The position numbers and the translations under genes are program-made. Below the pieces are notes generated by a model, which ran no database searches, was not told the DNA's origin, and saw only the letters and a program-made list of their open reading frames with translations. From a phage, in NCBI GenBank assembly GCA_029944565.1, contig GCA_029944565.1_4115.1: a stretch of 64,000 nucleotides of DNA. One strand, written 5' to 3'. Positions 16,687-40,959 of this stretch are shown here, one piece after another (position 1 is the first letter of the stretch; the number at the start of each line of letters is the position of its first letter).

Positions 16687-17152
16687 TACCTTCTCCTACA
16701 GTATTCTCTACATATTCATAATCAAAATAGAAACTACTGGAGTCAATACTTTTGAAATACCACATAATTACAATAACATCTAATTCTTCTTCATTGTACA
16801 ACGTACTATTCTGGAAGTAATATTCTTCACTATCCCACGGTCCTTCCAGTACTGAATAAGGAATGATAGTGTCATCAGCATCACTATCTGTGTTGTAGAT
16901 GGTAATATCTTCATTACGGCAATAACTAATGTACTGATTGTACATATGATATTCACAGTTATCACTGTCACCAGTATCAGTGTGCAGTACTAATGTTTCT
17001 GCACATATCTCGGACTCGTCATAATCGTCACGGTCTTTTACAAAAAATTCAGTATCAGATGTTTTATATACACCTGGTACTGAACCTTCCTGTACCATAA
17101 TCATGTACTCATGAATCTTCTTTGCTTCTTTCAATGCACTTTGTAATGACAT
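16664..17152 (-). CDS. hypothetical protein, family A paralog (MSLQSALE subgroup)
   Basis: motif EEYYFQNSTLY. Confidence 0.6.
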   Translation of the reverse strand: MSLQSALKEAKKIHEYMIMVQEGSVPGVYKTSDTEFFVKDRDDYDESEICAETLVLHTDTGDSDNCEYHMYNQYISYCRNEDITIYNTDSDADDTIIPYSVLEGPWDSEEYYFQNSTLYNEEELDVIVIMWYFKSIDSSSFYFDYEYVENTVGEGNVITKCS

Positions 17153-17596
17153 TACAAATCCCCTGTACTTAAATATTCACATGCTCCCCAGTCAAGAAAG
17201 AATGGTTCAAAATTCAATTCCTTAAAGTACCACAACACAACCAAGGAATCAAGAATTTCTTGGTTAAAAATGAGACTCTGTTGGAAGTAATACTCTTCAG
17301 TACCCCACGGGCCATCAAGTACCCCGAAGTCAACAGGTGTATTTGTTGTGTCAAAAGTAATCTTAGTACCTGGAATATATACAAAAAAAATTAGTATATT
17401 GACTACATGAAGAGTACTGTATAGTATTGTCTTTATCCTGTCCCATAAGTAAAATATCATCAGAGTATGTCTTTATACCTGATAGATAATACTCATTACC
17501 AAATGCACTTACTTTATCACCATAGAAACCACTTTTTATGTTATCGTGGAAGTGATGTATTCTGTGTGCTAGTTCAAGTGCACTTGCTAAACTCAT
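17152..17596 (-). pseudogene. family A paralog split by frameshift
   Basis: N-terminal ORF 17363..17596 (MSLASALE...) and C-terminal ORF 17152..17460 (EEYYFQQSLIF) overlap out of frame at A8/T8 run 17383-17390. Confidence 0.5.
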
Positions 17597-18565: not shown

Positions 18566-18925
18566 TCATATATTGAAATAATAATTATTCGTTCTTGATG
18601 GGGATGGATTAAATACGTTTTCTTTTTCAAATCTCTTCATTTCATTTTGCAAAGAAACCATTTCTTCAAATGTACAGGAGTACTTATTCTTATCAAACAC
18701 TAATGCAGCCTGAAATAGTTCACCATCGTCCAGTACTGTATAATCTATAAGACTCTCAGATTCATAGTCATAGTCGTCATGTGATACATGAATAAATTTA
18801 AAACAAGAATCTTTGTAATGCATATATAAACTCAACTCATGTTCCGAGTCGCCCTTAATAAGATTACAGCACAAGTCCCATCCTTTAGGTAACTTATAAT
18901 AGTACATAGAATAATCATATGTCAT
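18566..18925 (-). CDS. hypothetical protein, family A paralog
   Basis: motif DGELFQAALVF. Confidence 0.6.
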   Translation of the reverse strand: MTYDYSMYYYKLPKGWDLCCNLIKGDSEHELSLYMHYKDSCFKFIHVSHDDYDYESESLIDYTVLDDGELFQAALVFDKNKYSCTFEEMVSLQNEMKRFEKENVFNPSPSRTNNYYFNI

Positions 18926-19278
18926 TCTTGAATTCCTAAATTGAATTTGTATTCTTGATTAATACTTGCATTGGGTTTATGCAAAGCAGCATACTCTTTC
19001 ATTTCATTTTGTATTGCAATAACTTCTTCAAATGTACACAAGTACTTCTTATCAAATACTAATGATTCTTGGAATAGTTCTGCGGTATCCATTAATGTAT
19101 AGTCCGGCATATCTTGGTGTGGATACTGTAATGAACTGTAATCAATGAATGTAAATTTACCCTGAGTGTAATGAATATACTCATTTGCACTGTGCATTAA
19201 ATCACCTTTGTTTAAATTACAAAAGTACTGATAACTGTGCTTGAAAGTATGTACTGATATTAAAAAATCAAATTCCAT
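18922..19278 (-). CDS. hypothetical protein, family A paralog
   Basis: motif TAELFQESLVF. Confidence 0.6.
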   Translation of the reverse strand: MEFDFLISVHTFKHSYQYFCNLNKGDLMHSANEYIHYTQGKFTFIDYSSLQYPHQDMPDYTLMDTAELFQESLVFDKKYLCTFEEVIAIQNEMKEYAALHKPNASINQEYKFNLGIQE

Positions 19279-19649
19279 CAGTACTCAACCTCTACATAAA
19301 TAGATTCAGGAAACTTAGTCATATAATCTTCTGGATAGTTCTGCATTACTTTGATCATTTCTGCCTGTGTAGCACGGACGTATTCAATTGGTGCTCCTGG
19401 TAAATTCCAGACAGTACTTTCCTGAAAGAATTCCTCTTCTGACAGTACTGTCAGATTTACAAAATCATTACGGTAATTTTTTGAATCATCATATGTGAAG
19501 ATTTTAAAAGACCCATTTTCATATAGTACAAGAACAAAATGGGAGAATTTTTGTAATGCACCACCAAGGCTTTCCACGACCGCATGATTCAGTGTACAGA
19601 TGACCTCTTTTTTCCTCATACCGAATTGAATTCTAATTTCTTTTTTCAT
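19278..19649 (-). CDS. hypothetical protein, family A paralog
   Basis: motif EEEFFQESTVW. Confidence 0.6.
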   Translation of the reverse strand: MKKEIRIQFGMRKKEVICTLNHAVVESLGGALQKFSHFVLVLYENGSFKIFTYDDSKNYRNDFVNLTVLSEEEFFQESTVWNLPGAPIEYVRATQAEMIKVMQNYPEDYMTKFPESIYVEVEY

Positions 19650-19807
19650 AAAATCTCCTTCAGATTAGTACTGAATTTGTACAGAATATTAGAACTGTAT
19701 ACAGCCTCTGTATCTGTATCCATAATCAAATCACCTTTGTTTAAATTACAAAAGTACTGATAACTGTGCTTAAAAGAATGTACTGATATTAAAAAATCAA
19801 ATTCCAT
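19646..19807 (-). pseudogene. truncated duplicate of the N-terminus of 18922..19278
   Basis: ~85-bp direct repeat of 19195-19280 at 19727-19810 gives a 53-aa ORF MEFDFLISVHSFKHSYQYFCNLNKGDL... lacking the module. Confidence 0.45.
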
Positions 19808-20184
19808 CACACTTCCCCTAGATTGAAATGATTACAAAAATCATCTTCACCAGTACTGCACCAGATATCTATACATTCCCTGTGAATACATTTAATTCTA
19901 CGCTGTAATTCAATCATCTCTTCTAATGTACAGATGTACTTCTTATCAAATACTAATGCCGCCTGAAACAGTGCAGCATCATCAAGTACTGTATAGTCCA
20001 ACATCTCGGTTGCTTTACCCCTAAACCCAGTACTAAAATCCATCAAATAAAAGTCAGCATTCCAGTACTTTAAAATCTTGTCCCTAGCGTAGTTTAAATC
20101 ACCCTTGTATAAGTTAGAGTGCGTAACTAACTCACCAGTGTACATCCATGTCCTTGCACAAAATTCATTATATTTTATTTCCAT
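19807..20184 (-). CDS. hypothetical protein, family A paralog
   Basis: motif DAALFQAALVF; start taken at MEIKYNEF by analogy with paralogs, track ORF extends further. Confidence 0.55.
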   Translation of the reverse strand: MEIKYNEFCARTWMYTGELVTHSNLYKGDLNYARDKILKYWNADFYLMDFSTGFRGKATEMLDYTVLDDAALFQAALVFDKKYICTLEEMIELQRRIKCIHRECIDIWCSTGEDDFCNHFNLGEV

Positions 20185-20383
20185 CTTAATCTCTACTATA
20201 ATTAATAAGGTAAACTCCAATATAAGGAGAACGTTCGCCAGCGGGGTATTTTTTGTTTCAAGAAACATGAACTGTACTCTGAAAAACACAATATAAAACT
20301 TTATATTAAACATATACCTTAGCATGTTTTTCAGCGGAAATTTTTTTGACCCCCCCCCTGCGGCCTGTCAAAATGAAACGTCT

Positions 20384-28703: not shown

Positions 28704-29013
28704 TAGGCTCCTGTTTAGATTCTTTCATTAGTACTATCATCTTATGTACTAATGGCATAGGAAACTCTAAATCCCATACTAATGATTCCTGAAAGTATTC
28801 CTCTGGTGATAAAGTACTTAAATCTTTAATATCAACGTGCTTGTATATTTTATTTTCGTAATTAACAAATGATATATATAAATCACTAACATAAGAATCA
28901 TAGGTAATTGTGAATGGCTTACCCTTGTAATCCATTACATCTCTACATAGACTACTTTTGATATATGTATGTTCAAATGATTTATATACCTTGAGTTGTA
29001 TATTAGTTTTCAT
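28669..29013 (-). CDS. hypothetical protein, family A paralog
   Basis: motif PEEYFQESLVW. Confidence 0.6.
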   Translation of the reverse strand: MKTNIQLKVYKSFEHTYIKSSLCRDVMDYKGKPFTITYDSYVSDLYISFVNYENKIYKHVDIKDLSTLSPEEYFQESLVWDLEFPMPLVHKMIVLMKESKQEPNGDYEEHTVEY

Positions 29014-29278
29014 ATTTCTCTTTATTAGCTTGTTTGGTTTTATAGTGAATTAAATCTATTAATGTAATCAAGTACAACGTCAAATAGTACTCTTGTTGAT
29101 CTGTACCTAATGATACAAAGAACTTGTGCTCATAGATTAAAACCTGTTTCTCTTCAAATGGACATTTAATCCTCTGTATAGGCTTAAGTAAATGATAGTA
29201 CTTATTAAATCTATGATACATTTCTAGTTCTGTCAGTACTTTCATATTAAACACATACTCCATTAGCAGTAGCATCAC
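29003..29278 (-). CDS. small hypothetical protein, family B paralog
   Basis: motif SLGTDQQEY. Confidence 0.5.
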   Translation of the reverse strand: MMLLLMEYVFNMKVLTELEMYHRFNKYYHLLKPIQRIKCPFEEKQVLIYEHKFFVSLGTDQQEYYLTLYLITLIDLIHYKTKQANKEKYEN

Positions 29279-29468
29279 GTAAAGCTGTCAAATACTTCTG
29301 TACGGCTTGCTCTTGCTTATTTGTACCTAAAAGTATATACATCCATAATTCACTGTAATGTACATCTTGTGTATAAGGGTCATTGTAACTTTTTGATAAT
29401 ATAGCATCAAATTCAGATGCATAATCCCTTGTGAACTTAAACATATCTTGTTGTGTTATGATTCTCAT
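29247..29468 (-). CDS. small hypothetical protein, family B paralog
   Basis: motif LLGTNKQEQ. Confidence 0.5.
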   Translation of the reverse strand: MRIITQQDMFKFTRDYASEFDAILSKSYNDPYTQDVHYSELWMYILLGTNKQEQAVQKYLTALRDATANGVCV

Positions 29469-29680
29469 AACTTTTCCTGTATAAGCTTCTTAAGTATTTC
29501 TATGTGTGAATTAACAGTTCTTTCTTGATGCTGTGTTCCTAAGAGTGTCAGTACTATCATCTCTGAACGCAAAAGATTTTTTTCAAGTTCACTTATATCA
29601 GTTCTTGAATCAAGTGCCATATATTTGTGATTATTCTTCCTGAATAGTGCCAAGTACTCTTGGTTTGATATTATCTTCAT
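29465..29680 (-). CDS. small hypothetical protein, family B paralog
   Basis: motif LLGTQHQER. Confidence 0.5.
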   Translation of the reverse strand: MKIISNQEYLALFRKNNHKYMALDSRTDISELEKNLLRSEMIVLTLLGTQHQERTVNSHIEILKKLIQEKL

Positions 29681-29892
29681 AGTTTACTTTTAATTTCCAT
29701 TAAAAGTGCTCTAATGTGCTCATTGACAAAACGCTCTTGGGAATCTGTGTCTAGGGTGAGAAGCATTCTTAAATCTGAACCTCTGATGGTATATTCTAAA
29801 TCATTCTTTGATTCTCGCATAAGTTTCTGAAAGGATGAGAAGTGTAATCCCATGAGTTCAATGTATTCTGCTGTTCCTAGTGGTTTTGGCAT
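29677..29892 (-). CDS. small hypothetical protein, family B paralog
   Basis: motif TLDTDSQER. Confidence 0.5.
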   Translation of the reverse strand: MPKPLGTAEYIELMGLHFSSFQKLMRESKNDLEYTIRGSDLRMLLTLDTDSQERFVNEHIRALLMEIKSKL

Positions 29893-30104
29893 TTTAGTTC
29901 AATCGCTCGTTTAAGTGTATTAATATAATCATTAATATCGTATTCTTGATAGTTAGTTCCCAGGGTAGCTAGAACATAGATTTCATTTCTCTTAATAATT
30001 TTATCCATATCTGGTATATCTGATGTGTTAATAACAAACAACTTCAAAAACAATCCATTTATAATTGTTAGGTATTCTTCGTCGGTAATCATTCGCATTT
30101 GCAT
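29877..30104 (-). CDS. small hypothetical protein, family B paralog
   Basis: motif TLGTNYQEY. Confidence 0.5.
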   Translation of the reverse strand: MQMRMITDEEYLTIINGLFLKLFVINTSDIPDMDKIIKRNEIYVLATLGTNYQEYDINDYINTLKRAIELKCQNH

Positions 30105-30310
30105 CTTCTCAGTACTGATTCTTTAAGTTCATTGATGTAGCACTCTACATATTCTTCTTGTAGGTTTGTTCCGATATGTAACAGTACTCTTAAATCTGCT
30201 CTCAGTACTTCTTTATCATCTTCATCTATATCAGACAGTGTTATGTTTAAGAATTTACTTGAACTCTCTATAAGTAATATTACTGAATCACCTTTGCTTA
30301 AAATTTTCAT
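30089..30310 (-). CDS. small hypothetical protein, family B paralog
   Basis: motif HIGTNLQEE. Confidence 0.5.
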   Translation of the reverse strand: MKILSKGDSVILLIESSSKFLNITLSDIDEDDKEVLRADLRVLLHIGTNLQEEYVECYINELKESVLRRCKCE

Positions 30311-30518
30311 AATCTCTTTTTGCTTTCCTCGCCAAAAGGTACATATACGATTCTTCGTATTGTGCTTGGTAGTTTGTGTTTAAGAGTCGAAACAACTTCT
30401 GTTCTGCTAGAACGAGTTGCTTATCTTCATAACAACGATAGCGTATCAACTTTTTGTATTCGATGTTGATTACATCCATTACTATAAGCCCATGTTCATC
30501 ATCTGTCAAGTGTTTCAT
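30288..30518 (-). CDS. small hypothetical protein, family B paralog
   Basis: motif LLNTNYQAQ. Confidence 0.5.
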   Translation of the reverse strand: MKHLTDDEHGLIVMDVINIEYKKLIRYRCYEDKQLVLAEQKLFRLLNTNYQAQYEESYMYLLARKAKRDYENFKQR

Positions 30519-30757
30519 GCATTTTTTCTTTTTCTTATATGTTTAGTTAAAAGGTATATTAGTTTTCTATTGTATTCTTCCTGATAGTTTGTTCCTAATA
30601 GTGCAAGAAGTTTTGCTTCAACTAAAGCTAATTGACGTTCTTCAAATGTGTGTTCCAGTATGTACTTTGGGTTTGATTTTTTAGCGTAAGCACTATTAGT
30701 CTTCATTACAATCTTATGATATTCATTAGCAGTTAGGATTTTTAAATACTTGATCAT
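30515..30757 (-). CDS. small hypothetical protein, family B paralog
   Basis: motif LLGTNYQEE. Confidence 0.5.
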   Translation of the reverse strand: MIKYLKILTANEYHKIVMKTNSAYAKKSNPKYILEHTFEERQLALVEAKLLALLGTNYQEEYNRKLIYLLTKHIRKRKNA

Positions 30758-30977
30758 GTATCTTTTCCTTTATAGAGAATTTAAGATATCGAAGCATACT
30801 TTCAATGTAATACTCTTGTCTGTCAGTGCCAAGAAAGTACATGAGTTGAATGTATAAAACTTCTGCACTCCTTTCCGCTGGAGACTTGTTTGTGTCGTTT
30901 TGAAGTTGATTTGTATGTTTTCTTGATTTAATTAGTCGTTCTTTTAACTCATCGTCTGTTAAGTATTTCATTTGCAT
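30726..30977 (-). CDS. small hypothetical protein, family B paralog
   Basis: motif FLGTDRQEY. Confidence 0.5.
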   Translation of the reverse strand: MQMKYLTDDELKERLIKSRKHTNQLQNDTNKSPAERSAEVLYIQLMYFLGTDRQEYYIESMLRYLKFSIKEKIHDQVFKNPNC

Positions 30978-31203
30978 TTACTTTTTCCTTAATAGTGATT
31001 TTAAGATATCTAATCATACGTGCAACATATTCCTCTTGTCTATCAGTTCCCAGAAGATATGGTAGTGATTGGAATAATACTTCTGCACTCCTTTCTGCTG
31101 GGGTTTGGTTTAGGTCAATTGGACGTTTATTGGTATATCTCTTGGCACGAACTAATCTCTCGACGTATTCATTATAGGTTAAGTATATCATTTCATTTTG
31201 CAT
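30949..31203 (-). CDS. small hypothetical protein, family B paralog
   Basis: motif LLGTDRQEE. Confidence 0.5.
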   Translation of the reverse strand: MQNEMIYLTYNEYVERLVRAKRYTNKRPIDLNQTPAERSAEVLFQSLPYLLGTDRQEEYVARMIRYLKITIKEKVNANEILNRR

Positions 31204-31439
31204 TTAATGTTCCTTACATGAATTGTCTGGATTAAACAATCAATCCAAGTTTGAACATATCTTGTTTGATATTGTGTTCCTAAGAGACTCTGCATTTTAA
31301 ACTCTGTTTCCAGTTCATATCTCTTTTCTATAGAAAAGCTTAAATGACCATATTCCTTTTCGTATCTTTTCAGAGCTTCCCCCATTCTGGCAAAACTTTC
31401 TGCTAAGTCGATTTTATTAATTTTATTCATAGTATTCAT
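31188..31439 (-). CDS. small hypothetical protein, family B paralog
   Basis: motif LLGTQYQTR. Confidence 0.5.
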   Translation of the reverse strand: MNTMNKINKIDLAESFARMGEALKRYEKEYGHLSFSIEKRYELETEFKMQSLLGTQYQTRYVQTWIDCLIQTIHVRNIKCKMK

Positions 31440-31726
31440 CGATCAGTACACCTTAGTGGTTGGGTCATTTGATAAAAGTACAGCTTACCTTTGATTTCCA
31501 GTAGTAACTCCGCGATTAAGCGATTTACTTCTGTATCTTGATAGTTTGTTCCTAAGAATACACCCATCTTTAACTCACGCATCATAATCATTTTCTTACT
31601 GTGTTGAATTTCTGGGTTGTGATAGATTGTATTACGTTTGTGCGTAATTTTTGTCATACGCTCGGTATATTCATCTTTACTTAAATTGATCATTTGCATG
31701 TTCATCAACCTCACATTTATTTTCAA
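31436..31726 (-). CDS. small hypothetical protein, family B paralog
   Basis: motif FLGTNYQDT. Confidence 0.5.
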   Translation of the reverse strand: MKINVRLMNMQMINLSKDEYTERMTKITHKRNTIYHNPEIQHSKKMIMMRELKMGVFLGTNYQDTEVNRLIAELLLEIKGKLYFYQMTQPLRCTDR

Positions 31727-31728
31727 TA

Positions 31729-31995
31729 CTATTCTTTAGTTTGTAGATATAGTTTTCTTCCAATGTATCTCTTAAGTGCGATTATGTATTCATCTACATA
31801 ATACTCCTGATAGTTTGTTCCTATGAATGCACCCACCTTTAACTCAAGTTTCATAATCATCTTATTTCCGTGTTTAATGACTTCTCCGTGATGGATTTCA
31901 TTAAGTCCAGGTGCAATTTTCACCAGGCGTTCTTTATATTTTGCTTGAGATAATTTAATCATTTTCATGTTAATTACCCTTACATTTATTTTCAA
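31729..31995 (-). CDS. small hypothetical protein, family B paralog
   Basis: motif FIGTNYQEY. Confidence 0.5.
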   Translation of the reverse strand: MKINVRVINMKMIKLSQAKYKERLVKIAPGLNEIHHGEVIKHGNKMIMKLELKVGAFIGTNYQEYYVDEYIIALKRYIGRKLYLQTKE

Positions 31996-32200
31996 TACTA
32001 TTCATGAGTTCTATAAGATAGTTTTCTACCTTACCTTCCTGATAGTTAGTCCCTAGGAAGTTGCACAACACGGCTTCTATGATTTTGATTTTCCTGATAT
32101 CAGGCTTCAATCTTTTGTTATTGAATATTTGAATCCTTATATCTCTGGATGCATTTAAACGTTTTTGATATTCATGGTAAGTTAAATGAATCATTTTCAT
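31970..32200 (-). CDS. small hypothetical protein, family B paralog
   Basis: motif FLGTNYQEG. Confidence 0.5.
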   Translation of the reverse strand: MKMIHLTYHEYQKRLNASRDIRIQIFNNKRLKPDIRKIKIIEAVLCNFLGTNYQEGKVENYLIELMNSIENKCKGN

Positions 32201-32415
32201 TTACGTTTAACCTCTCGCTGGAGGGCATCAATTAACATCAGTACAGCATTCTCTTGATAGTTTGTTCCTAAGACTGAAAGCATCTTTATCTCATTTACTA
32301 AAATCAACTTCTTTGAGGGTTCAATAATGTGACTATCATAAACGGCCTTACGTGCTGGATAAGTTTTCGCCAGTATAACATAAAATTCGTCTTTACTTAA
32401 ATTAATCATTTGCAT
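32197..32415 (-). CDS. small hypothetical protein, family B paralog
   Basis: motif VLGTNYQEN. Confidence 0.5.
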   Translation of the reverse strand: MQMINLSKDEFYVILAKTYPARKAVYDSHIIEPSKKLILVNEIKMLSVLGTNYQENAVLMLIDALQREVKRK

Positions 32416-32624
32416 TTACTTTTAACCTCTTTCTGTAGAGCGTCAATCCATAGATCTACATACATTTGTTGATAGTTTGTGCCTAAGAGTGCACCTACAT
32501 AGAGTTCAGTTACTAGTGCGTGCTTAAGGTTAGCTTGGATGCTCTTATCGCTTGATATCATTCTCCTTCTGCTTCCACATGTTTTCAGGAGTCTGATGTA
32601 TTCAAAGCCTTGTAAATTTCTCAT
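32406..32624 (-). CDS. small hypothetical protein, family B paralog
   Basis: motif LLGTNYQQM. Confidence 0.5.
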   Translation of the reverse strand: MRNLQGFEYIRLLKTCGSRRRMISSDKSIQANLKHALVTELYVGALLGTNYQQMYVDLWIDALQKEVKSKCK

Positions 32625-32836
32625 ATTTTGGATACTACCTTGTTACGTAAGGAACTTAATAATACGTCAGTGTAGATGTTTTGATAGTTTGTCCCTACGA
32701 ATACACCCAACTTCATTTCAGCTATTATAACACATTTGTCCTCTTGTGCAATAGATTTGTTTAACACAATACTATACACTTTTGATTTGATAGTTTGTAA
32801 CCTCCAATGATACTGATACTCATTAAGGATTATCAT
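32621..32836 (-). CDS. small hypothetical protein, family B paralog
   Basis: motif FVGTNYQNI. Confidence 0.5.
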   Translation of the reverse strand: MIILNEYQYHWRLQTIKSKVYSIVLNKSIAQEDKCVIIAEMKLGVFVGTNYQNIYTDVLLSSLRNKVVSKI

Positions 32837-33071
32837 TCTCTTTCCTCCAGATTTCGGTTCTCATGTGTTGGCAGTGTGCATCAATATATTGCTCTATCGA
32901 TCTGGCGATTGCTGTTTTATCAGTGCCTGTCATCAGTACAAGCATCTCGGCCTCACAGTGAAGTAAACGCATGATATCATAGGGTAATATTTCAGATACC
33001 GTGTCATAGTGTTTCTGTGCCAGTGTCTGCAATAGTTTACAATACATTTTGTGATTTAGTCTTTGTCGCAT
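32823..33071 (-). CDS. small hypothetical protein, family B-like
   Basis: variant MTGTDKTAI. Confidence 0.45.
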   Translation of the reverse strand: MRQRLNHKMYCKLLQTLAQKHYDTVSEILPYDIMRLLHCEAEMLVLMTGTDKTAIARSIEQYIDAHCQHMRTEIWRKENDNP

Positions 33072-33328
33072 TGTTTATTCCATTCTTTTTTGGCTCTCTG
33101 GGTTTTATATTGGATTTGGTTTCTTAATGATGCCAAGTATCGTTGAATGAACAGATCTTGATAGTTTGTTCCAATGAATTTCATAAGATAAACATCACCG
33201 TTGATAACATCCACTTCAGGTGCACCATGTAATACATTGTTTTTTCTAAGGGTGTTAATAAGAGAGAAGAGGGCAGTTTGATACTCAACTCCTGATAAAG
33301 TCTTCATGTTTTGCGAGCCAATATTCAT
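33056..33328 (-). CDS. small hypothetical protein, family B paralog
   Basis: motif FIGTNYQDL. Confidence 0.5.
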   Translation of the reverse strand: MNIGSQNMKTLSGVEYQTALFSLINTLRKNNVLHGAPEVDVINGDVYLMKFIGTNYQDLFIQRYLASLRNQIQYKTQRAKKEWNKQCDKD

Positions 33329-33548
33329 CTAGTTTATCCTGTATAACATTCATTAATTGATCGACAAATTCTTTGCAAAACTTATCTTGATATTGAGTCC
33401 CCATAAAGTACAGCAACCATAGCTCATTAACTTTAGCTCGCATTTGGTTCCATGTAAGGGTGGGGTCATCGTAGATTACTCTTGCTTCTGGGGTGAGCTT
33501 TCGAATTCTAAGTGAATATTCATCTTGTGTTAAGTATTTCATTTGCAT
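33285..33548 (-). CDS. small hypothetical protein, family B paralog
   Basis: motif FMGTQYQDK. Confidence 0.5.
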   Translation of the reverse strand: MQMKYLTQDEYSLRIRKLTPEARVIYDDPTLTWNQMRAKVNELWLLYFMGTQYQDKFCKEFVDQLMNVIQDKLDEYWLAKHEDFIRS

Positions 33549-33697
33549 TTGTCCATAATGTAATTCTTGAGTGCAACTATGTGTTCATGGATATAAAAAT
33601 TCTGATGAGAAGTTCCAAGAAAGTACAGCATCCATCCCTCACTCTGCTCGACTTCTAGTTTAGTATCGAGTTGGTCAGATATGTTAATGAAAACCAT
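33539..33697 (-). CDS. short family B member (52 aa), possibly truncated
   Basis: motif FLGTSHQNF; below ORF-track cutoff; start shares duplicated 45-bp block with neighbour. Confidence 0.4.
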   Translation of the reverse strand: MVFINISDQLDTKLEVEQSEGWMLYFLGTSHQNFYIHEHIVALKNYIMDKCK

Positions 33698-33954
33698 TAG
33701 TTCTTTTCCTTTCTTTCTATTTGTTTCATAAGAACATTGATATACTCACCCGCAAACCTATTCTGATACTGCGTCCCCATGAATTCCAACATCCATACTT
33801 CAGCAACCTTTTCTTCAATTTCAGTCCATTGTAAGTACATCATAGTGAAGTAAATGGTGTTCTCTTTTTTTCTGGCACTCTTAGCACGGGCCTCGTATTC
33901 AAAGTTATTAATGATGTTCATTACATTTGTCCATAATGTAATTCTTGAGTGCAA
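33697..33954 (-). CDS. small hypothetical protein, family B paralog
   Basis: motif FMGTQYQNR. Confidence 0.5.
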   Translation of the reverse strand: MHSRITLWTNVMNIINNFEYEARAKSARKKENTIYFTMMYLQWTEIEEKVAEVWMLEFMGTQYQNRFAGEYINVLMKQIERKEKN

Positions 33955-34135
33955 CTATGTGTGCAATAACATACTCTTCCTGGAAGTTCGTCCCCAGTAC
34001 AGCCATCATGCGTTTATCGGTGGTGTTTATCCTGTGTTCCCTTACACATAAACCTTCTTTGTGAGGAAGTGTAAAATATTTGTTTATTGCAGCTATGATA
34101 ATTTTATTCTTCTCTATATTACTTAAATGTTTCAT
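33908..34135 (-). CDS. small hypothetical protein, family B paralog
   Basis: motif VLGTNFQEE. Confidence 0.5.
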   Translation of the reverse strand: MKHLSNIEKNKIIIAAINKYFTLPHKEGLCVREHRINTTDKRMMAVLGTNFQEEYVIAHIVALKNYIMDKCNEHH

Positions 34136-34344
34136 AGTTTACTCTTAATGTAGTTCTGAAGTTCAATTAAGTATTTCCCTACATAATACTCCTGAAAGTC
34201 TGTATCCAAAAATGCACCCATAAGTAAATCCTTCTCCATTGCCCTTGATAAGTTAAGGTCTGCATTTGAAAGGTATATAAGTAATATTTCAGTCTGGACA
34301 GAATTAAAACGTTTCTTATATTCTTCAGGTGTTAATATAATCAT
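34132..34344 (-). CDS. small hypothetical protein, family B paralog
   Basis: motif FLDTDFQEY. Confidence 0.5.
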   Translation of the reverse strand: MIILTPEEYKKRFNSVQTEILLIYLSNADLNLSRAMEKDLLMGAFLDTDFQEYYVGKYLIELQNYIKSKL

Positions 34345-34556
34345 AATTTGCTCCTGATGTATTTCTCAAGAGATGACAAATACTTTTCCTCATAATACTC
34401 CTGATAGTCTGTTCCCAAGAATGCACCCAAAAGTATTTCATTTTCCAATACCTCGGCTAAGTTTAAATCAGACGTCTCTTCGTATATTATGAGGATTTCA
34501 AGTTGTCTGGCAGCGATGCGTTCAGTATATTGATATGAGTTTTCTATAATAATCAT
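34341..34556 (-). CDS. small hypothetical protein, family B paralog
   Basis: motif FLGTDYQEY. Confidence 0.5.
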   Translation of the reverse strand: MIIIENSYQYTERIAARQLEILIIYEETSDLNLAEVLENEILLGAFLGTDYQEYYEEKYLSSLEKYIRSKL

Positions 34557-34762
34557 ATTTTACTCTTAATATCTTCTATTAAAAATCGAATCCATTCTTC
34601 AACATAATCTTCCTGATGGTTTGTGTTCAGTACAGCCAACATGCGGATCTCTGCTCTTGCAACTTCAATTTCAGTTTTAGGCAGGTCTTTGCTGATATCC
34701 ACCATTAAGTCCATGTATTTCAAGATAAGACCGTATGATTGGGTTCGTGTTATAGTTTTCAT
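34553..34762 (-). CDS. small hypothetical protein, family B paralog
   Basis: motif VLNTNHQED. Confidence 0.5.
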   Translation of the reverse strand: MKTITRTQSYGLILKYMDLMVDISKDLPKTEIEVARAEIRMLAVLNTNHQEDYVEEWIRFLIEDIKSKI

Positions 34763-34959
34763 TGTTTCCTCGTGGACAATATTTTATTTTTCAATGTATC
34801 CATATATTGCCACACCCATCTACCCTGATAGTTTGTTCCCAATGTAATCAAAAGGTATAACTCCATTCGTTCTACGTGTGTGTCTGTGTTGTAAATCTTT
34901 ACGTAGTTTTTACGTAACAGTGATTGATATTCTTCTTTATTTAAAATACGCATTTTCAT
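34759..34959 (-). CDS. small hypothetical protein, family B paralog
   Basis: motif TLGTNYQGR. Confidence 0.5.
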   Translation of the reverse strand: MKMRILNKEEYQSLLRKNYVKIYNTDTHVERMELYLLITLGTNYQGRWVWQYMDTLKNKILSTRKQ

Positions 34960-35153
34960 AGTTTACTCGTTATATCTTCAATTAAATACCAAATCCAATC
35001 GTTGACATACCTTTCCTGAAAGTTAGTTCCAATGAATAGTGCCATAATTAATTCACGCTTATAGGCAATACCACGGTCATGGGACTTATACATTATCATA
35101 GCCATGTTATTGATAAGTCTTTCGTGGTGCTGTTCTTTAGTTAAAATACGCAT
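34956..35153 (-). CDS. small hypothetical protein, family B paralog (first gene of array)
   Basis: motif FIGTNFQER; start at MRILTKEQ with SD aagggag, track ORF extends 10 codons further. Confidence 0.5.
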   Translation of the reverse strand: MRILTKEQHHERLINNMAMIMYKSHDRGIAYKRELIMALFIGTNFQERYVNDWIWYLIEDITSKL

Positions 35154-35183
35154 AGGGACTCCCTTAAAATTAATATCAATCAT

Positions 35184-35680: not shown

Positions 35681-36082
35681 TTACAGTCCTAAGATAGTGC
35701 GTGCTTCGTTACGTTCCGTACACAGCTGCATGATGTGAGCAAGTAAGTCCTTGCTAATGTATCCGGTGTTCATAGCTTCACGAATAGATACATCATAAGC
35801 ACCGAACCCCGTGCGAACGATACGCACATCATTCAGGTTAGTATTATAGATACCGCCGAGATCAACGGCTTCGAATACTACATCAACAGAATATTCATTG
35901 TTGCCATCGTGGAAGTTTTCCAGTGCAATAGTATTGGATACCGCCCAACGTTTGCAGTTTCCAATGATGCGGCACTGTTCCGGTTGGATAGTACCATTAC
36001 TTACAGCGTACTCCAGTGCATCTTTACCAAAAGTCCGAGCCAGTACTAAAACGTCAGCGAAGGAATTGATTGAGAAGGTCAT
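35681..36082 (-). CDS. hypothetical protein
   Basis: start MTFSINSF with SD aaggag; track ORF extended through leader hairpin. Confidence 0.6.
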   Translation of the reverse strand: MTFSINSFADVLVLARTFGKDALEYAVSNGTIQPEQCRIIGNCKRWAVSNTIALENFHDGNNEYSVDVVFEAVDLGGIYNTNLNDVRIVRTGFGAYDVSIREAMNTGYISKDLLAHIMQLCTERNEARTILGL

Positions 36083-36103
36083 GATAAAACTCCTTAATTT
36101 AGG

Positions 36104-36165
36104 AGGGAGAACCATTTCCCCCTCTCTATGTAAAACATTATACTTGATTCTAAGTACTATGCAAG
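36104..36165 (-). promoter_or_regulatory. early promoter (TTGCAT-16-TATAAT) plus 5' leader hairpin
   Basis: plus-strand cattatac at 36136-36143 and atgcaa at 36159-36164; GC hairpin gggagaaccatttccccctc between TSS and SD. Confidence 0.65.
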
Positions 36166-36171
36166 TACTTT

Positions 36172-36504
36172 TTACATTTTAATACCTGGATTCAGGTAGC
36201 GGTGAGATCCATATTCTGGATCGGTTTCGGTCCAGTACTGTAAATCGATAGTACCTTTCGCGTTAATCTTGTCTACCAGCTTATTCATCTTAGCGTATAC
36301 TACGTCAGCATCGATGCGTTTAAAGCCAGTAGCTTTAGTGAAGTAGTAGTGATTTGCTTCACTATCATTAAGGATATACCGAGCACCGTTTGCAGTCTGT
36401 GCGATAATGATTGAGTATTCTACTTCCCGATCCAGACCGTCGATGAATACAGATGAAACATTGGTACGGATGAAAGCTTTAACGATAGCGATTGAAGTAC
36501 TCAT
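36172..36504 (-). CDS. hypothetical protein
   Basis: 110-aa ORF; SD aggag. Confidence 0.6.
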   Translation of the reverse strand: MSTSIAIVKAFIRTNVSSVFIDGLDREVEYSIIIAQTANGARYILNDSEANHYYFTKATGFKRIDADVVYAKMNKLVDKINAKGTIDLQYWTETDPEYGSHRYLNPGIKM

Positions 36505-36557
36505 TTTGAATCTCCTAACTTTGTGGGCCGTCGCACCATTGCCGCCCTACGAGATAC

Positions 36558-36586
36558 ATTATCGCAGTACTGATATACTTTGTCAA
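36558..36586 (-). promoter_or_regulatory. early promoter (TTGACA-17-GATAAT)
   Basis: hexamers on minus strand upstream of 36172..36504. Confidence 0.6.
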
Positions 36587-36612
36587 TACTTTTTTTATTA
36601 ATAGTTTTAGTT

Positions 36613-36620
36613 CCACCAGC
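36613..36620. other. Chi octamer (CCACCAGC, complement of GCTGGTGG)
   Basis: exact 8-mer in intergenic DNA. Confidence 0.5.
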
Positions 36621-36652
36621 AGATAGTTACTCACCGTTATTAACTATATATT

Positions 36653-36732
36653 TTAGATACACCTATGCACCCTGTGGGCTAGTTTTTGTCTATGCGTATA
36701 TAGTACTAAAGGAGCGGACCGAAGTCAACTCC
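36653..36732 (-). promoter_or_regulatory. conserved intergenic element, copy 1 (promoter TTGACT-17-TACTAT inside UUCG hairpin, then conserved core)
   Basis: core ...tgcaccctgtgggct... at 36653-36681; hairpin ggagcggac-cgaa-gtcaactcc at 36711-36732. Confidence 0.5.
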
Positions 36733-36751
36733 TTTTTTTATTCTTTTTTTG

Positions 36752-36952
36752 TTAGATGATTCTCCAATCATCAACGATCATGGTAAGATACCGAACCAGT
36801 GATTCGAGTGATTCGTGTTCTCGATAGTCTGCCGCTCCACCAGCGGTACAAGTACAGCCGATTAAGCCGTTTTGTAGTTCCTGGATCTTTACGTCGATCT
36901 GGTTGGCTTTAGCTTCTTTCAGTACTTCAACCAGGGCGATAGCGATAGACAT
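36752..36952 (-). CDS. hypothetical protein
   Basis: 66-aa ORF; SD ggag. Confidence 0.55.
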   Translation of the reverse strand: MSIAIALVEVLKEAKANQIDVKIQELQNGLIGCTCTAGGAADYREHESLESLVRYLTMIVDDWRII

Positions 36953-36974
36953 AATGTTTTACTCCAAACTATTG

Positions 36975-37035
36975 GCGGGAGAACTATTCCCCCGCTCTAT
37001 GTAAAACATTATACATTACTGGTTAGTACTGTCAA
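36975..37035 (-). promoter_or_regulatory. early promoter (TTGACA-16-TATAAT) plus leader hairpin
   Basis: perfect hexamers; hairpin gcgggagaactattcccccgc. Confidence 0.7.
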
Positions 37036-37041
37036 ATAGTT

Positions 37042-37299
37042 TTATGAAATATCTTCGATGTAGTCGGCCCATTTCATTTTTTCAGTACTGTCAATGGCTA
37101 CCGGATTATTTGGATCAAACCATTCACCATTCCCGCAATACATACCCACGCCAGCGGTAGTATATCCATCCTGGGCCGTATTCCATGACATTGCACGATA
37201 GATATGGCCTTTAATTGGTGTTAGTACTGGTAACGTTTTATGGTCTTCTACGTAGGCCATAGCTTGAGGATTTACCCGATATTGTGTGAACTGTTCCAT
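37042..37299 (-). CDS. hypothetical protein
   Basis: 85-aa ORF. Confidence 0.55.
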   Translation of the reverse strand: MEQFTQYRVNPQAMAYVEDHKTLPVLTPIKGHIYRAMSWNTAQDGYTTAGVGMYCGNGEWFDPNNPVAIDSTEKMKWADYIEDIS

Positions 37300-37327
37300 T
37301 ATGTTTCCCCTTGTAGTTAGTAAAGTT

Positions 37328-37356
37328 ATTACATCAGTACTATCAAGCTATGTCAA
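37328..37356 (-). promoter_or_regulatory. early promoter (TTGACA-17-TGTAAT)
   Basis: hexamers on minus strand. Confidence 0.45.
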
Positions 37357-37375
37357 TAGTACTGAAATAAAACTT

Positions 37376-37600
37376 TTAGATTAGATTATTGATGCCGTTG
37401 ATGGTAGACTCGCTTTCTTCTTTCTCCCATTGGCGGTAGTACTTCCATGCTTCATGATATGTGGCGATTAGTTCATCTTTTTGATCCTGAGTACATGCCA
37501 GTACTGAATCACGGTGAGCGGTGTTATAGATAGAATCGAATGATTTCTTCTCTTCTGCCAGGTTAGCTACTTCCCGCATCAGTTCATCAAAGTTAGCCAT
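37376..37600 (-). CDS. hypothetical protein
   Basis: 74-aa ORF; SD aaggag. Confidence 0.6.
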   Translation of the reverse strand: MANFDELMREVANLAEEKKSFDSIYNTAHRDSVLACTQDQKDELIATYHEAWKYYRQWEKEESESTINGINNLI

Positions 37601-37618
37601 TTTATTACTCCTTTTAGT

Positions 37619-37675
37619 GGGGGAGGATATCTCCCCCTATGCAAAACATTATACTTTGTTTTAGTTATTATGCAA
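37619..37675 (-). promoter_or_regulatory. early promoter (TTGCAT-16-TATAAT) plus leader hairpin
   Basis: hairpin gggggag-gatat-ctccccc. Confidence 0.65.
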
Positions 37676-37931
37676 GTACTTTTTTCATATAAAGATTATA
37701 TTCTACACCGCCGTAACCTTCTACGATGATATGTTTTGCGTTATCACGTTTGCACATAGTGAAACCGTTGTTGATGTGTTCTGCATTTTCCAGGGCGACA
37801 TCACCGATAGCGGCACATACGGCACTAATAACAGTATTCCGCAAAGTACTGGTATCATTAGCGGTCATAGTAGTTTGCAGTACTACGTTGTCGTATACGT
37901 GTGCATTGATAGTGATTTCGATAGTGTTCAT
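37668..37931 (-). CDS. hypothetical protein
   Basis: 87-aa ORF; SD aggag. Confidence 0.6.
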   Translation of the reverse strand: MNTIEITINAHVYDNVVLQTTMTANDTSTLRNTVISAVCAAIGDVALENAEHINNGFTMCKRDNAKHIIVEGYGGVEYNLYMKKVLA

Positions 37932-37949
37932 GGTGTATCTCCTGGACTG

Positions 37950-38010
37950 GCGGGAGAACTATTCCCCCGCTCTATGTAAAACATTATACGTTAATCTAAC
38001 TACAATGCAA
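37950..38010 (-). promoter_or_regulatory. early promoter (TTGCAT-16-TATAAT) plus leader hairpin
   Basis: same architecture as 36975..37035. Confidence 0.65.
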
Positions 38011-38017
38011 GTACTTT

Positions 38018-38209
38018 TTAAATTTTATTTCCGATATAGTCCGGTCTATTCTTTTCGGTCATACGCTTTGCTAATGTTTGCATATGGCTTATTGCGTTTA
38101 ATGTGTCTTCCTCCAGGGATGAATCAACATAATCAGGATCATTCTTCACCTTGCAATGATTATGATAGCGTAGTACTGCCAGTACTTTTTTAACTTCTTC
38201 TACTGTCAT
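38018..38209 (-). CDS. hypothetical protein
   Basis: 63-aa ORF, ATGA-coupled to upstream gene. Confidence 0.5.
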   Translation of the reverse strand: MTVEEVKKVLAVLRYHNHCKVKNDPDYVDSSLEEDTLNAISHMQTLAKRMTEKNRPDYIGNKI

Positions 38210-38478
38210 AATAAGTACCCCACTTCGTTAGCTTTCAGGTTAGTATCAATCATCAGTGGATTTTTGTAGTTCACAAAACGATTAGTTTTCTCGATAGCGA
38301 ATCCCATATAATCCAGCTTACTAACAGTACATTCATTCTTAAAAACTTCTTTCGCTGCATCGATGGCTGATTGCATGGATAACCGACCATCTAAATTAAT
38401 GTTTCCAAATGATCCACCAGCAGAAGTAGGATTACCGTTCATATCTTTAATGATCATAGTAGCGGAGTAGCTGGACAT
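38206..38478 (-). CDS. hypothetical protein
   Basis: 90-aa ORF. Confidence 0.6.
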   Translation of the reverse strand: MSSYSATMIIKDMNGNPTSAGGSFGNINLDGRLSMQSAIDAAKEVFKNECTVSKLDYMGFAIEKTNRFVNYKNPLMIDTNLKANEVGYLL

Positions 38479-38500
38479 AATTTTGTTTCCTTTTAGTATC

Positions 38501-38559
38501 GGGGAGAACTATTCTCCCCTTGATGTAAACTATTATACAGTACTGATATACTTTGTCAA
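38501..38559 (-). promoter_or_regulatory. early promoter (TTGACA-16-TATAAT) plus leader hairpin
   Basis: hairpin ggggagaa-ctat-tctcccc. Confidence 0.7.
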
Positions 38560-38565
38560 ATACTT

Positions 38566-38973
38566 TTATTCGCCCATATAGATTAAGTTATCATCGCCTA
38601 CATAGGGATCGCAAACGTTGATTTCTTCGCAGTACTTCGTGAATACATCGCCATAGTGACCTAAACCACGATCCCAAAAACCAGTTCCGTGACCTTCGCG
38701 GGTAAGGAACAGATCATGACCAGCTTGCTCATAACCGTAATCAATAAACATACCGCGAACTACTTCCAGATCATTACCGTGTTTCTCAATGAAGCGAGAA
38801 CATGCAATCACCGCCGCTTGACGTGCTTCATCAGATAACTCATAATCTTCCAGGTAATCGCCGTTATCATTATGTACAGTACTGAATTGCATAGCTTCAA
38901 TGTAAGCTACAACCATTGCAGCATGATTTTTATCGTTAGTGATGTTCCGAGCGAGATTAGTAGTAGTAGACAT
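38566..38973 (-). CDS. hypothetical protein
   Basis: 135-aa ORF. Confidence 0.6.
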   Translation of the reverse strand: MSTTTNLARNITNDKNHAAMVVAYIEAMQFSTVHNDNGDYLEDYELSDEARQAAVIACSRFIEKHGNDLEVVRGMFIDYGYEQAGHDLFLTREGHGTGFWDRGLGHYGDVFTKYCEEINVCDPYVGDDNLIYMGE

Positions 38974-38994
38974 GATTTTATTCCTTATTGTATT

Positions 38995-39053
38995 GGGGAG
39001 AACTATTCTCCCCTTGATGTAAACTATTATACAGTACTGATATACTTTGTCAA
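38995..39053 (-). promoter_or_regulatory. early promoter (TTGACA-16-TATAAT) plus leader hairpin
   Basis: near-identical copy of 38501..38559. Confidence 0.7.
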
Positions 39054-39056
39054 TAC

Positions 39057-39278
39057 TTAATTACGTTTAAAATGATATGTGCCTTTATCATCCTGTACGC
39101 CCCACACTGATTTACCATCAACACCAGTGAAACCGGATTGTAATTCAATATGGAAACCATTATTATCAACTACAAAAACTTTTTTATTTTCATCCCGATA
39201 ACATTGATATTCTGAATCAACATTAAAGGCCGCATCATTCAGAAGATTGGAAGCGTAAATGCAAGTCATTGTAGTCAT
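39057..39278 (-). CDS. hypothetical protein
   Basis: start MTTMTCIYAS; track ORF extended through leader hairpin. Confidence 0.55.
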   Translation of the reverse strand: MTTMTCIYASNLLNDAAFNVDSEYQCYRDENKKVFVVDNNGFHIELQSGFTGVDGKSVWGVQDDKGTYHFKRN

Positions 39279-39301
39279 GATTTTATTCCTTATTCTTTGA
39301 G

Positions 39302-39360
39302 GGAGAACCATTTCCCCCTCTCGATATAAAACATTATACTTGATTCTAAGTACAATGCAA
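39302..39360 (-). promoter_or_regulatory. early promoter (TTGCAT-16-TATAAT) plus leader hairpin
   Basis: hexamers and hairpin gggagaaccatttccccctc. Confidence 0.65.
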
Positions 39361-39402
39361 GTACTTTTTTAAAAATAGTTTTCAGTACTGAATACTTATA
39401 TA

Positions 39403-39487
39403 ATAGATACATTTATGCACCCTGTGGGTCAGTGAGCTATCTCTCAATGAATATATAATAGCAAAGGGACTGACCGAAGTCAATCCC
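39403..39487 (-). promoter_or_regulatory. conserved intergenic element, copy 2 (promoter TTGACT-17-TATTAT inside UUCG hairpin, then conserved core)
   Basis: core at 39403-39432; hairpin gggactgac-cgaa-gtcaatccc at 39465-39487. Confidence 0.5.
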
Positions 39488-39501
39488 TTTTTTAATCTTT
39501 T

Positions 39502-40086
39502 TTATCGTGTTATAGTTACGGCTTTTACATCCCGCTTTTTATAGTACTGATTCCAGATATTGCGGGTTAAACCGTAATCAAGTACTTTAATAAGGCCGTT
39601 GCGATCCTGGCCGATATTCTGTTTTCTGATATCTCTTATCGTTAGTGTTGACAGTGTATCATCAACGTGTTGTAGTGCATCAGCAAAGCGGTGCTGGCGT
39701 TCAATTGCATTACGTTTAATATTGTACTTTAATTCGTTGCACGCGTTAACGTGCTTTACACTGCCTTTGCTTGCAGTACTCAACCGATCCATAACGATAA
39801 ACATATTATCAGGATCGCTTAAATGCATATGCACTTTAGCAAAGTACTGTTTCAATTGAGGGCGGTCATAGTCTAAAAAATTCCATACCTTACATTCAGT
39901 TTCATTTTGTTCTACACCCGCATCACAATTGGCGACCTTAATCACTAACCGATCATTTAAAGCGAAAACTATACGGGAAGATCCCGCCCCGATGATCTCC
40001 AGGCCAGCTAACCGACAAGCTGAAAGGATCTCTTTGTTGGTTTCCATTTCTGACAGTGTACGGATGAATTTAGTATAATTACGCAT
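39502..40086 (-). CDS. protein kinase-like protein (putative)
   Basis: glycine-rich loop IGAGSSRIVF then VIKV; catalytic-loop-like NIGQDRNGLIKVLDYG; start MRNYTKF with SD aaggag. Confidence 0.4.
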   Translation of the reverse strand: MRNYTKFIRTLSEMETNKEILSACRLAGLEIIGAGSSRIVFALNDRLVIKVANCDAGVEQNETECKVWNFLDYDRPQLKQYFAKVHMHLSDPDNMFIVMDRLSTASKGSVKHVNACNELKYNIKRNAIERQHRFADALQHVDDTLSTLTIRDIRKQNIGQDRNGLIKVLDYGLTRNIWNQYYKKRDVKAVTITR

Positions 40087-40114
40087 TGCATGTTCTCCTT
40101 GAGTTAATGAAACT

Positions 40115-40143
40115 ATATTACAGTACTTTACTATCAATTGCAA
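40115..40143 (-). promoter_or_regulatory. early promoter (TTGCAA-17-TAATAT)
   Basis: hexamers on minus strand. Confidence 0.5.
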
Positions 40144-40360
40144 CTACTTTTTTAACATTAACGGCGTGGATCACTTCCTTAGTGTTTTTAGTACTGAATA
40201 CTTTCGCCGCTCCTTGTTCGACCGTGATACGATAGCGACCATTAACATCAACCATATTAATAAAGTCCGGCGTGCTGAATGGTGTTGTTTTACATTTCAG
40301 TACTGTTAACAATTCCACCAGCGATGTAGTTTCTTTGATACGTTTTTCTAAAGTAATCAT
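40118..40360 (-). CDS. hypothetical protein
   Basis: 80-aa ORF. Confidence 0.55.
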   Translation of the reverse strand: MITLEKRIKETTSLVELLTVLKCKTTPFSTPDFINMVDVNGRYRITVEQGAAKVFSTKNTKEVIHAVNVKKVVAIDSKVL

Positions 40361-40945: not shown

Positions 40946-40959
40946 TTTAGTTTATCCTA

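Follow-up and report, generated by a model that had tools for sequence, protein, structure and literature searches.

The window analysed here, a 64,000-nt stretch of phage DNA (contig GCA_029944565.1_4115.1 of the NCBI GenBank assembly GCA_029944565.1), carries at 19646..19807 on the minus strand a small open reading frame (ORF) of 53 codons that is a chimera: codons 1–27 come from a gene of the type that encodes a 118-residue protein close by (the 118-aa gene), and codons 28–53 from the last 47 codons of a gene of the type represented by A4_364 in phage A4 (a 364-type gene). An earlier note on this DNA had taken the ORF for a truncated paralog created by duplication of an 85-bp gene fragment, and hence for a footprint of illegitimate recombination within an array of paralogous genes. 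Illegitimate recombination remains part of the explanation, but a plain 85-bp duplication does not, as the 3' half of the ORF is an A4_364-type tail and the repeats flank a unit of 529 bp, which consists of this tail and a gene for a 123-residue protein (the 123-aa gene).

Composition of the 53-codon reading frame

The ORF begins within the left copy (19725..19809, minus strand) of an 85-nt direct repeat, the right copy of which (19196..19280, minus strand) comprises the 5' end of the intact 118-aa gene (18922..19278, minus strand) and 2 nt upstream of it. The two copies are spaced by 529 nt and agree at 82 of 85 nt (96%), which gives a blastn E-value of 2.9e-36 inside the window, where the next best match reached 27 bits (E=0.045). 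The first 84 nt of the ORF are 95% identical to the 118-aa gene, whereas the first 84 nt of the intact 119-, 118- and 125-aa genes show a mutual identity of only 53–59% (~60–62% over their full length), and the repeat therefore lies far above the background of paralog similarity. The pairwise alignment that the earlier note had proposed as a check on its near-duplicate segments thus returned strongly significant similarity and the duplication is real, with boundaries at 19725–19809 rather than at 19727–19810. With the ATG at 19807 as its start codon the ORF comprises 53 codons, and its product would have 54 residues if the GTG at 19810 were used. The genes in this region are all encoded on the minus strand, in a tight chain with overlapping stops and starts: the 3' end of the ORF overlaps the 123-aa gene (19278..19649, minus strand) by ATGA (4 nt, 19646–19649), and its 5' end overlaps the stop of the 125-aa gene (19807..20184, minus strand) by one base (TGATG, 19807), so that of the ATGA overlaps previously assigned to both sides only the 3' one holds.

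Joining MEFDFLISVHSFKHSYQYFCNLNKGDL to IMDTDTEAVYSSNILYKFSTNLKEIL, the ORF translates as MEFDFLISVHSFKHSYQYFCNLNKGDL IMDTDTEAVYSSN ILYKFSTNLKEIL. Its codons 1–27 (19727..19807, minus strand) correspond to the N-terminus of the 118-aa gene type (phrog_15629), with 26 of 27 amino acids identical to the 118-aa gene product, and its codons 28–53 (19649..19726, minus strand) to a remnant of the A4_364-type C-terminal tail, which also holds the ribosome-binding region of the 123-aa gene. The stretch of 75 nt that separates the repeat from the 123-aa gene occurs only once in the window (blastn). In phage A4 the same 123-aa gene (A4_365, 95% identical in nucleotides) has the 192-aa A4_364 as its upstream neighbour, and the similarity to the window runs on into the 3' end of A4_364, the protein of which ends ...VAFQQDL IMDVDSAATYSSNVLCKEFQNSKILELLYIADCNILYKFCTHLKEIL. 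The connection is best seen in phage 121Q, where the ORF is longer (74 aa; MEFDFLISVHTVKGAPQYLCNLNKGDL IMDTDTEVVYSSNVLCKEFQNSKMLELLCIADCNILYKFSTNLKEIL) and the joint reads ...KGDL followed by IMDTDTEVVYSSNVLCKEFQNSKMLELLCIADCNILYKFSTNLKEIL: the C-terminal 47 residues of this product are collinear with A4_364 (38/47 identical; tblastn E=2e-13), and the window keeps 26 of these codons. Altogether, the collinear alignment of the tail with A4_364 covers 141 nt and has the downstream gene in common. An origin of the tail from the C-terminus of the 118-aa gene itself (YKFSTNL compared to YKFNLG) was also considered and dropped, as the tail is collinear with A4_364.

When A4_364 was used as a tblastn query against the window, only a 21-aa tail piece was recovered at 19676–19738, and the N-terminal ~145 residues were absent; the same query against 50,697 phage records returned A4 alone at full length, plus the tail in 121Q. 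Full-length 364-type genes (192–198 aa) were found only in A4-like genomes, and form a cluster of 15 members in a large protein collection. In every 364 context that we read, all of them A4-like, the gene order was the same: 182 → 364 → 122/123 → 112 → 178 aa.

Identical bases are found exactly at both joints of the otherwise unrelated parental sequences, GATTTGAT on one side (left) and TGATGGA on the other (right). On the left, the 118-aa gene reads AAAGGTGATTT[A/G]ATGCAC and A4_364 reads CAACAGGATTTGATTATGGAT, with the product reading AAAGGTGATTTGATTATGGAT; the microhomology common to the 118-aa gene and A4_364 amounts to 8 nt (GATTTGAT; 19725..19732, minus strand) in the allele of Turkey3, WPEC3 and fEgEco12, in the contexts GGTGATTT[A/G]ATGCAC (118-aa gene) and CAGGATTTGATTATGGAT (A4_364). 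The right microhomology is the 7-nt stop/start overlap TGATGGA (19274..19280, minus strand), which occurs at three boundaries: 123-aa/A4_366 in A4, 123-aa/118-aa in the window and 125-aa/118-aa in phages without the unit.

Distribution and decay of the 529-bp unit

The 5.5 kb around the ORF are 92–99% identical to jumbo phages of E. coli from the genus Asteriusvirus, with vB_EcoM_G17 as the best match (98.6%) and SHEFM2K, phAPEC6, BF17, slurp01 and 121Q among the others. The 53-aa ORF itself is also present in G17, BF17, slurp01, phAPEC6, CRJP21, Turkey3 and metagenome contigs (it is called a hypothetical protein in G17, slurp01, BF17, phAPEC6 and others), and its presence in independent genomes argues that it is no assembly artefact. 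Presence or absence in related genomes, the second check that the earlier note had suggested, proved decisive and gave a richer picture than simple duplication, since it is the 529-bp unit, bracketed by the two 85-nt repeats, that is polymorphic. E9.1 lacks, as one block, the 529 bp that separate equivalent points of the two repeats, so that 125 → 118 is left. Measured in the fetched genomes from the start of the 125-aa gene to the end of the 118-aa gene, the span is 1260–1263 nt in the window, G17, BF17, CRJP21, slurp01 and Turkey3, 1323 nt in 121Q, and 731–734 nt in E9.1, PBECO4, JP4, SP27, UB, TH47, UE-S1, Ec-M-J, fEgEco12, ph0011, WPEC3 and CMSTMSU. A census of the 85-mer found at least two copies in 12 records (11 genomes) and one copy in 23 records (22 genomes). 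The order without the unit is hence that of the majority (22/33 genomes), and is also the state of the most diverged backbones and of metagenomic relatives; more distant relatives (L028–L030 and JNE01) likewise have a 118-type gene and no unit.

Other rearrangements of the same genes were seen in passing. A Logan contig of SRR27732228 (L027:2501–2830) encodes a 109-aa hybrid of the 125- and 118-aa genes (P0008) with the crossover in the conserved core; in L028 and L029 the 125-aa gene is absent and the 118-aa gene directly follows the intergenic region; and in UE-S1 (L009:1523–2251) the annotated 242-aa fusion of the 125- and 118-aa genes is caused by a 1-nt indel before the stop.

Among carriers of the unit, the 5' part of the fragment occurs in three haplotypes. 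That of the window group agrees at all 85 nt with the 5' end of the 118-aa gene that PBECO4 has in single copy, and that of Turkey3 agrees without a mismatch with the 5' end of this gene in Ec-M-J, CMSTMSU and TH47. The third, found in 121Q and CRJP21, contains a dense patch of substitutions, which we read as another allele because it sits in a segment that is also variable among 118-aa alleles; for the same reason, and because it was seen in those two genomes only, the patch was rejected as a relic of a lost second paralog.

The clearest indication of movement comes from Turkey3 and fEgEco12, which share a backbone that is diverged from the window (identity of 85.45% for the 125-aa gene, 90.15% for the body of the 118-aa gene and ~82% for the 119-aa gene). 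Only Turkey3 of the two has the unit; its 123-aa gene is 100% identical to that of the window, as is that of CRJP21, and the switch from backbone-type to window-type sequence falls inside the repeats. The unit has therefore passed from one genome to another, diverged one by homologous exchange, with the 85-mers as the shared sequence. This agrees either with a double crossover or with the integration of a putative excised circle by one crossover at approximately nt 58–81 of the repeat.

The tail has also decayed within the carriers. A4 and 121Q carry 63 nt that are missing in the window, G17, BF17, slurp01, CRJP21 and Turkey3, with the deletion point of the window relative to 121Q and A4 lying between 19691 and 19692, in frame. 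The borders of the 63 nt in 121Q are TAATGTTCTGTGCAA and TAATATTCTGTACAA, imperfect 15-nt direct repeats (13/15 identical) of which the window retains the second copy (TAATATTCTGTACAA; 19677..19691, minus strand), and the loss is an in-frame deletion of the slippage type. As the intact 364 gene contains the 63 nt, the long form found in 121Q is ancestral. Compared to A4 the tail shows ~11 nonsynonymous and 7 synonymous changes, and its proportion of nonsynonymous differences (pN 0.099) is 2–3 times higher than that of the 123-aa gene compared to A4 (0.031–0.044); intact A4-like tails differ mutually by 3 synonymous and 0 nonsynonymous changes. These numbers, which are small, suggest that the tail is under relaxed constraint.

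Founding event and fate of the fused reading frame

The account that we hold to be probable as a whole consists of an in-frame microhomology join, insertion into a genome with the order 125 → 118 → 119, later slippage and an ORF that is a by-product of these events. An illegitimate join guided by microhomology would have linked codons 1–27 of a 118-aa-type gene, without a shift of the reading frame, to the final 47 codons of an A4_364-type gene, with the block of 364 tail and 123-aa gene entering the 118-aa gene near its 5' end, by copying or by recombination, in a phage whose order was presumably 125 → 118 → 119. The strand would have switched over at GATTTGAT and back at the stop/start sequence TGATGGA, and the 85 nt between the microhomologies would thereby have been duplicated, as by template switching or by two crossovers on sister molecules. 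The 74-aa first product would persist in 121Q, while in the lineage of the window slippage between the imperfect 15-nt repeats would have removed 63 nt in frame to leave 53 aa. The 85-nt repeats would then have served as homology arms, through which recombination could delete the 529-bp unit or install it in relatives with a 118-aa gene; it is this action of the repeats that would make the unit polymorphic in the genus.

In order to judge what the fused product could do, its relation to the protein families of the window has to be considered. The fragment matches phrog_15629 at positions 1–39 of 121 only (E=1.2e-9), whilst its intact neighbours match over positions 1–121 (E=1e-56 to 1e-60): the N-terminal segment is homologous to the members of this family, but the core ...ELFQ.[SA]LVFDKKY.CT... 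is absent from the match, in agreement with the earlier description of a paralog N-terminus lacking the conserved module. The intact paralogs belong to a wider FQ-core superfamily, which by iterative profile search comprises ~39 ORFs (100–215 aa) on the minus strand between 0.6 and 29 kb of the window. Its core resembles ...EELFQESLV[FW]D..., with F69 and Q70, located in helix 1, invariant in an alignment of 18 diverse members. The predicted fold consists of five strands, two helices and a final strand, and matches only RaK2-like jumbo phage proteins; a comparison with the PDB gave no informative match, and in the literature searched on paralog families of Asteriusvirus this array is not described. 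Against the iteratively built superfamily profile the fragment scored E=0.22, which is not significant, and it has no FQ motif. In the structure model of the intact paralog, codons 1–27 correspond to strands β1–β2, so that the fragment is without the invariant F69-Q70 core, strands 3–5 and both helices of the predicted fold, and because these are missing it would not be a functional member of phrog_15629 or of the FQ-core superfamily. Modelled alone from its single sequence, the fragment gave a weak prediction (predicted local distance difference test (pLDDT) score of 69, predicted template modelling (pTM) score of 0.37) in which the secondary structure disagrees with that of the parent. For A4_364 against the superfamily profile, hmmsearch gave E=0.076 and hhalign paired only TDIAFQQDLIMDV with TAELFQESLVFDK, at a probability of 0.9%, the motif being found at a similar distance from the C-terminus in both proteins.

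The founding event can be read in more than one direction. Insertion is favoured because both parental orders are observed, because the order without the unit is the majority state that extends to the most diverged backbones and the metagenomic relatives, and because neither a second full-length 118-type gene nor the order 364 → 123 → 118 has ever been seen. The last two of these observations also speak against an alternative in which an ancestral array 125 → 118' → ... → 364 → 123 → 118 → 119 lost, in one microhomology-mediated deletion, everything between codon 27 of 118' and codon ~145 of 364, which made the chimera; the 85-nt identity would have been kept by gene conversion or allelic exchange and the genomes without the unit would be secondary losses. 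This alternative, which we consider unlikely though not negligible, has the merit of requiring a single illegitimate junction, and unequal exchange between neighbouring paralogs does occur here, as the hybrid gene P0008 attests. In genomes without the unit, moreover, the 5' end is either of the left-copy type (CATTCTTTTAAG: PBECO4, E9.1) or of the right-copy type (CATACTTTCAAG: JP4, SP27, UB), as expected if a deletion mediated by the repeats had varied crossover points. However, a tandem 118' would have needed continual homogenisation, given that the 5' ends of the other paralogs are only 53–59% identical, and its expected arrangements are missing from all sampled genomes. Some points do weigh against insertion: the direction of the founding event is not proven, since one deletion in a longer ancestral array would end in an identical scar; TGATGGA often marks gene boundaries here, which makes it weaker evidence for a crossover; A4 and the window are ~93% identical over another 7.9 kb, as ordinary relatives would be, so that 364 → 123 could be ancestral in situ rather than imported; and neither of the intermediates fragment → 123 → A4_366-like and 364 → 123 → 118 was found in the genomes and metagenomes searched. 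The value of ~93% elsewhere also rules out the identity of the unit (95%) as a clock for recent import. An IMG/VR search for contigs bearing the junction returned only 121Q itself; the exact 23-mer of the joint gave one chance match in metagenomes (L031, unrelated) and none in GTDB genomes; and contigs encoding the 53- or 74-aa products all have the same gene order. That an 85-bp piece of a 5' gene end was simply copied within the array, and followed by unrelated or random sequence, would account for the existence of the repeat; as what follows the repeat aligns collinearly with the tail of A4_364 and with the gene downstream of it, and as the repeats enclose an entire unit of 529 bp that relatives lack as one block, this explanation is already refuted and retains next to no credibility.

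With insertion as the favoured origin, the fate of the ORF has still to be weighed. Most likely it is a non-functional by-product, the 3' end of which is kept because it serves expression of the 123-aa gene: read from the sequence, the Shine-Dalgarno motif AAGGAG of the latter (19655..19660, minus strand) lies 5 nt before its ATG, inside the retained tail. The competing idea is that fusion gave birth to a functional mini-protein that selection has kept, for example to regulate or interfere with 118-aa-type paralogs through the shared N-terminal hairpin. Here the evidence is not all on the side of a by-product, as the ORF is open in every carrier (~11 genomes, in spite of three 5' haplotypes), fusion and 63-nt deletion were both in frame, and the ratio of nonsynonymous to synonymous substitution (dN/dS) in the tail is below 1 (0.4–0.7, from very few sites), so that some selection on the reading frame is possible; the coupling to both neighbours through the TGATG and ATGA overlaps is also tight. 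Two in-frame events have a probability of ~1/9 by chance, however, which is not compelling as evidence of selection, and the putative mini-protein lacks the invariant FQ core and strands 3–5 of the fold, is shorter by another 21 residues in one lineage, does not occur in two thirds of the relatives, shows nonsynonymous divergence raised 2–3 fold, and yields a weak model in conflict with the secondary structure of its parent. We therefore regard a selected mini-protein as improbable. Hardly more credit can be given to the more far-reaching proposal that the 123-aa gene is a self-contained mobile cassette, which would be excised as a 529-bp circle and integrate by a single crossover into co-infecting relatives bearing the 118-aa gene, as a counterpart in coding sequence of the PeSL mini-circles of T4-type phages, with the chimeric ORF perhaps retained because, as a mini-protein or a translated leader, it controls how the cassette gene is expressed or interferes with 118-aa-type paralogs: this is doubtful.

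Neighbouring features and relation to known recombination systems

The genes that surround the ORF comprise three intact phrog_15629 paralogs, namely the upstream neighbour of 125 aa, the 118-aa gene as the source type of the 5' part of the fragment, and a 119-aa gene (18566–18925, minus strand), together with the 123-aa gene, the cargo of the 529-bp unit, which is assigned to phrog_13866 by profile match. Upstream of the 125-aa gene, at 20185–20383 (minus strand), lies the only sizeable non-coding gap near the ORF. It contains a run of nine C (~20352–20360) and, on the coding strand, a 10-nt inverted repeat (CTGAAAAACA ... TGTTTTTCAG), is partly conserved in the metagenomic relative L028, and may be a promoter or regulatory region of the gene chain.

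Further paralogs and arrays are found elsewhere in the window. At 17152–17596 (minus strand) BF17, G17 and 121Q have a single 147-aa superfamily gene, in place of which the window has overlapping ORFs of 102 and 77 aa; the split is due to one extra T near 17383–17390 (T8 in the window versus T7), which is either a sequencing error or the mark of a real frameshifted paralog. A second tandem array, at 29003–35183 (minus strand), consists of 27 consecutive paralogous ORFs of ~70–90 aa (phmmer clustering), and it is because of this array that few ORFs of at least 90 aa occur in 29–57 kb. An alternative genetic code for the ORF-poor 29–57 kb was considered and is unneeded, the region being packed with genes of ~60–90 aa. 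The third array (55787–57521, minus strand), with nine consecutive paralogous ORFs of ~60–77 aa, ends at the point where the GC skew reverses its sign and coding passes to the other strand, and the plus strand carries at 60262–63830 a tandem of three genes, of 388, 412 and 436 aa, that contain RCC1 repeats (PF00415/PF13540; E down to 1e-11 to 1e-19). The 213-aa ORF at 39502–40143 (minus strand) has a weak protein-kinase-like Pfam match (E=1.6e-3, below the curated cut-off), and relatives annotate a serine/threonine kinase in this region. Short stretches within 36000–43900 have matches in a large number of unrelated phages (252 records), among them phages of Campylobacter and Klebsiella as well as the Escherichia phage muut (89%), which suggests a widely shared small element or gene there.

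In case of the 529-bp unit, several known systems can be compared. No transposase or integrase was found in the unit, which encodes only the 123-aa superfamily protein, nor were inverted repeats found at its ends; target-site duplications of transposons are short, at 2–14 bp. With no transposase, no inverted repeats and a duplication of 85 nt, the unit is not the footprint of a transposon. Microhomology-mediated template switching and deletion, by contrast, are events of the slipped-strand and copy-choice type, and the locus resembles them in the 8- and 7-nt microhomologies at its junctions, in the duplication of the target stretch and in the later 63-nt deletion between repeats identical at 13/15 positions; the mechanism is read here from the footprint in the DNA alone, and a two-step crossover history would leave the same one.

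Hyperplastic regions of T4-type phages offer a further parallel, as PeSL cassettes there mediate the insertion, deletion and replacement of modules and can form mini-circles (Arbiol et al. 2010, PMC2839356). Here too short direct repeats flank a small non-essential gene that is gained or lost between close relatives (the block is absent in 12 fetched genomes, and present in Turkey3 but not in fEgEco12). Unlike PeSL cassettes, which are intergenic and contain a promoter and a stem-loop terminator, the present repeats are coding 5' gene ends; promoter-like sites number 17 against 16.1 expected and terminator-like sites 1 against 0.8, with none in the repeats. As the repeats are coding and promoters and terminators are not enriched, the unit is not a member of the PeSL system.

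The ORF and its unit are an instance of phage mosaicism, in which illegitimate recombination is followed by homologous or homeologous spread. The mosaicism of phage genomes through illegitimate and homeologous recombination has been discussed by Martinsohn, Radman and Petit (2008, PMC2327257), and what they describe is matched here by a novel joint of unrelated coding sequences at a few common bases, in a region of non-essential genes, with spread by exchange among related phages. In contrast to their temperate lambdoid phages with Red/Gam, we are dealing with a lytic jumbo phage of 350 kb, and both parental arrangements as well as a decay intermediate (121Q) are still sampled.

The general view of phage evolution is unchanged by this case, and for the 53- or 74-aa "hypothetical protein" of G17, slurp01, phAPEC6, 121Q and others the most suitable annotation is that of a gene remnant. 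It is rare for a founding event of phage mosaicism to be caught together with its parents: among the jumbo phages of E. coli four states are still sampled, the donor type (A4-like, 364 → 123), the recipient type (PBECO4-like, 125 → 118), the first product (121Q, 74 aa) and the decayed product (the window, 53 aa), in addition to a unit that has moved into a diverged backbone (Turkey3). The locus thus offers a small and concrete system in which to measure illegitimate versus repeat-mediated recombination in jumbo phages.

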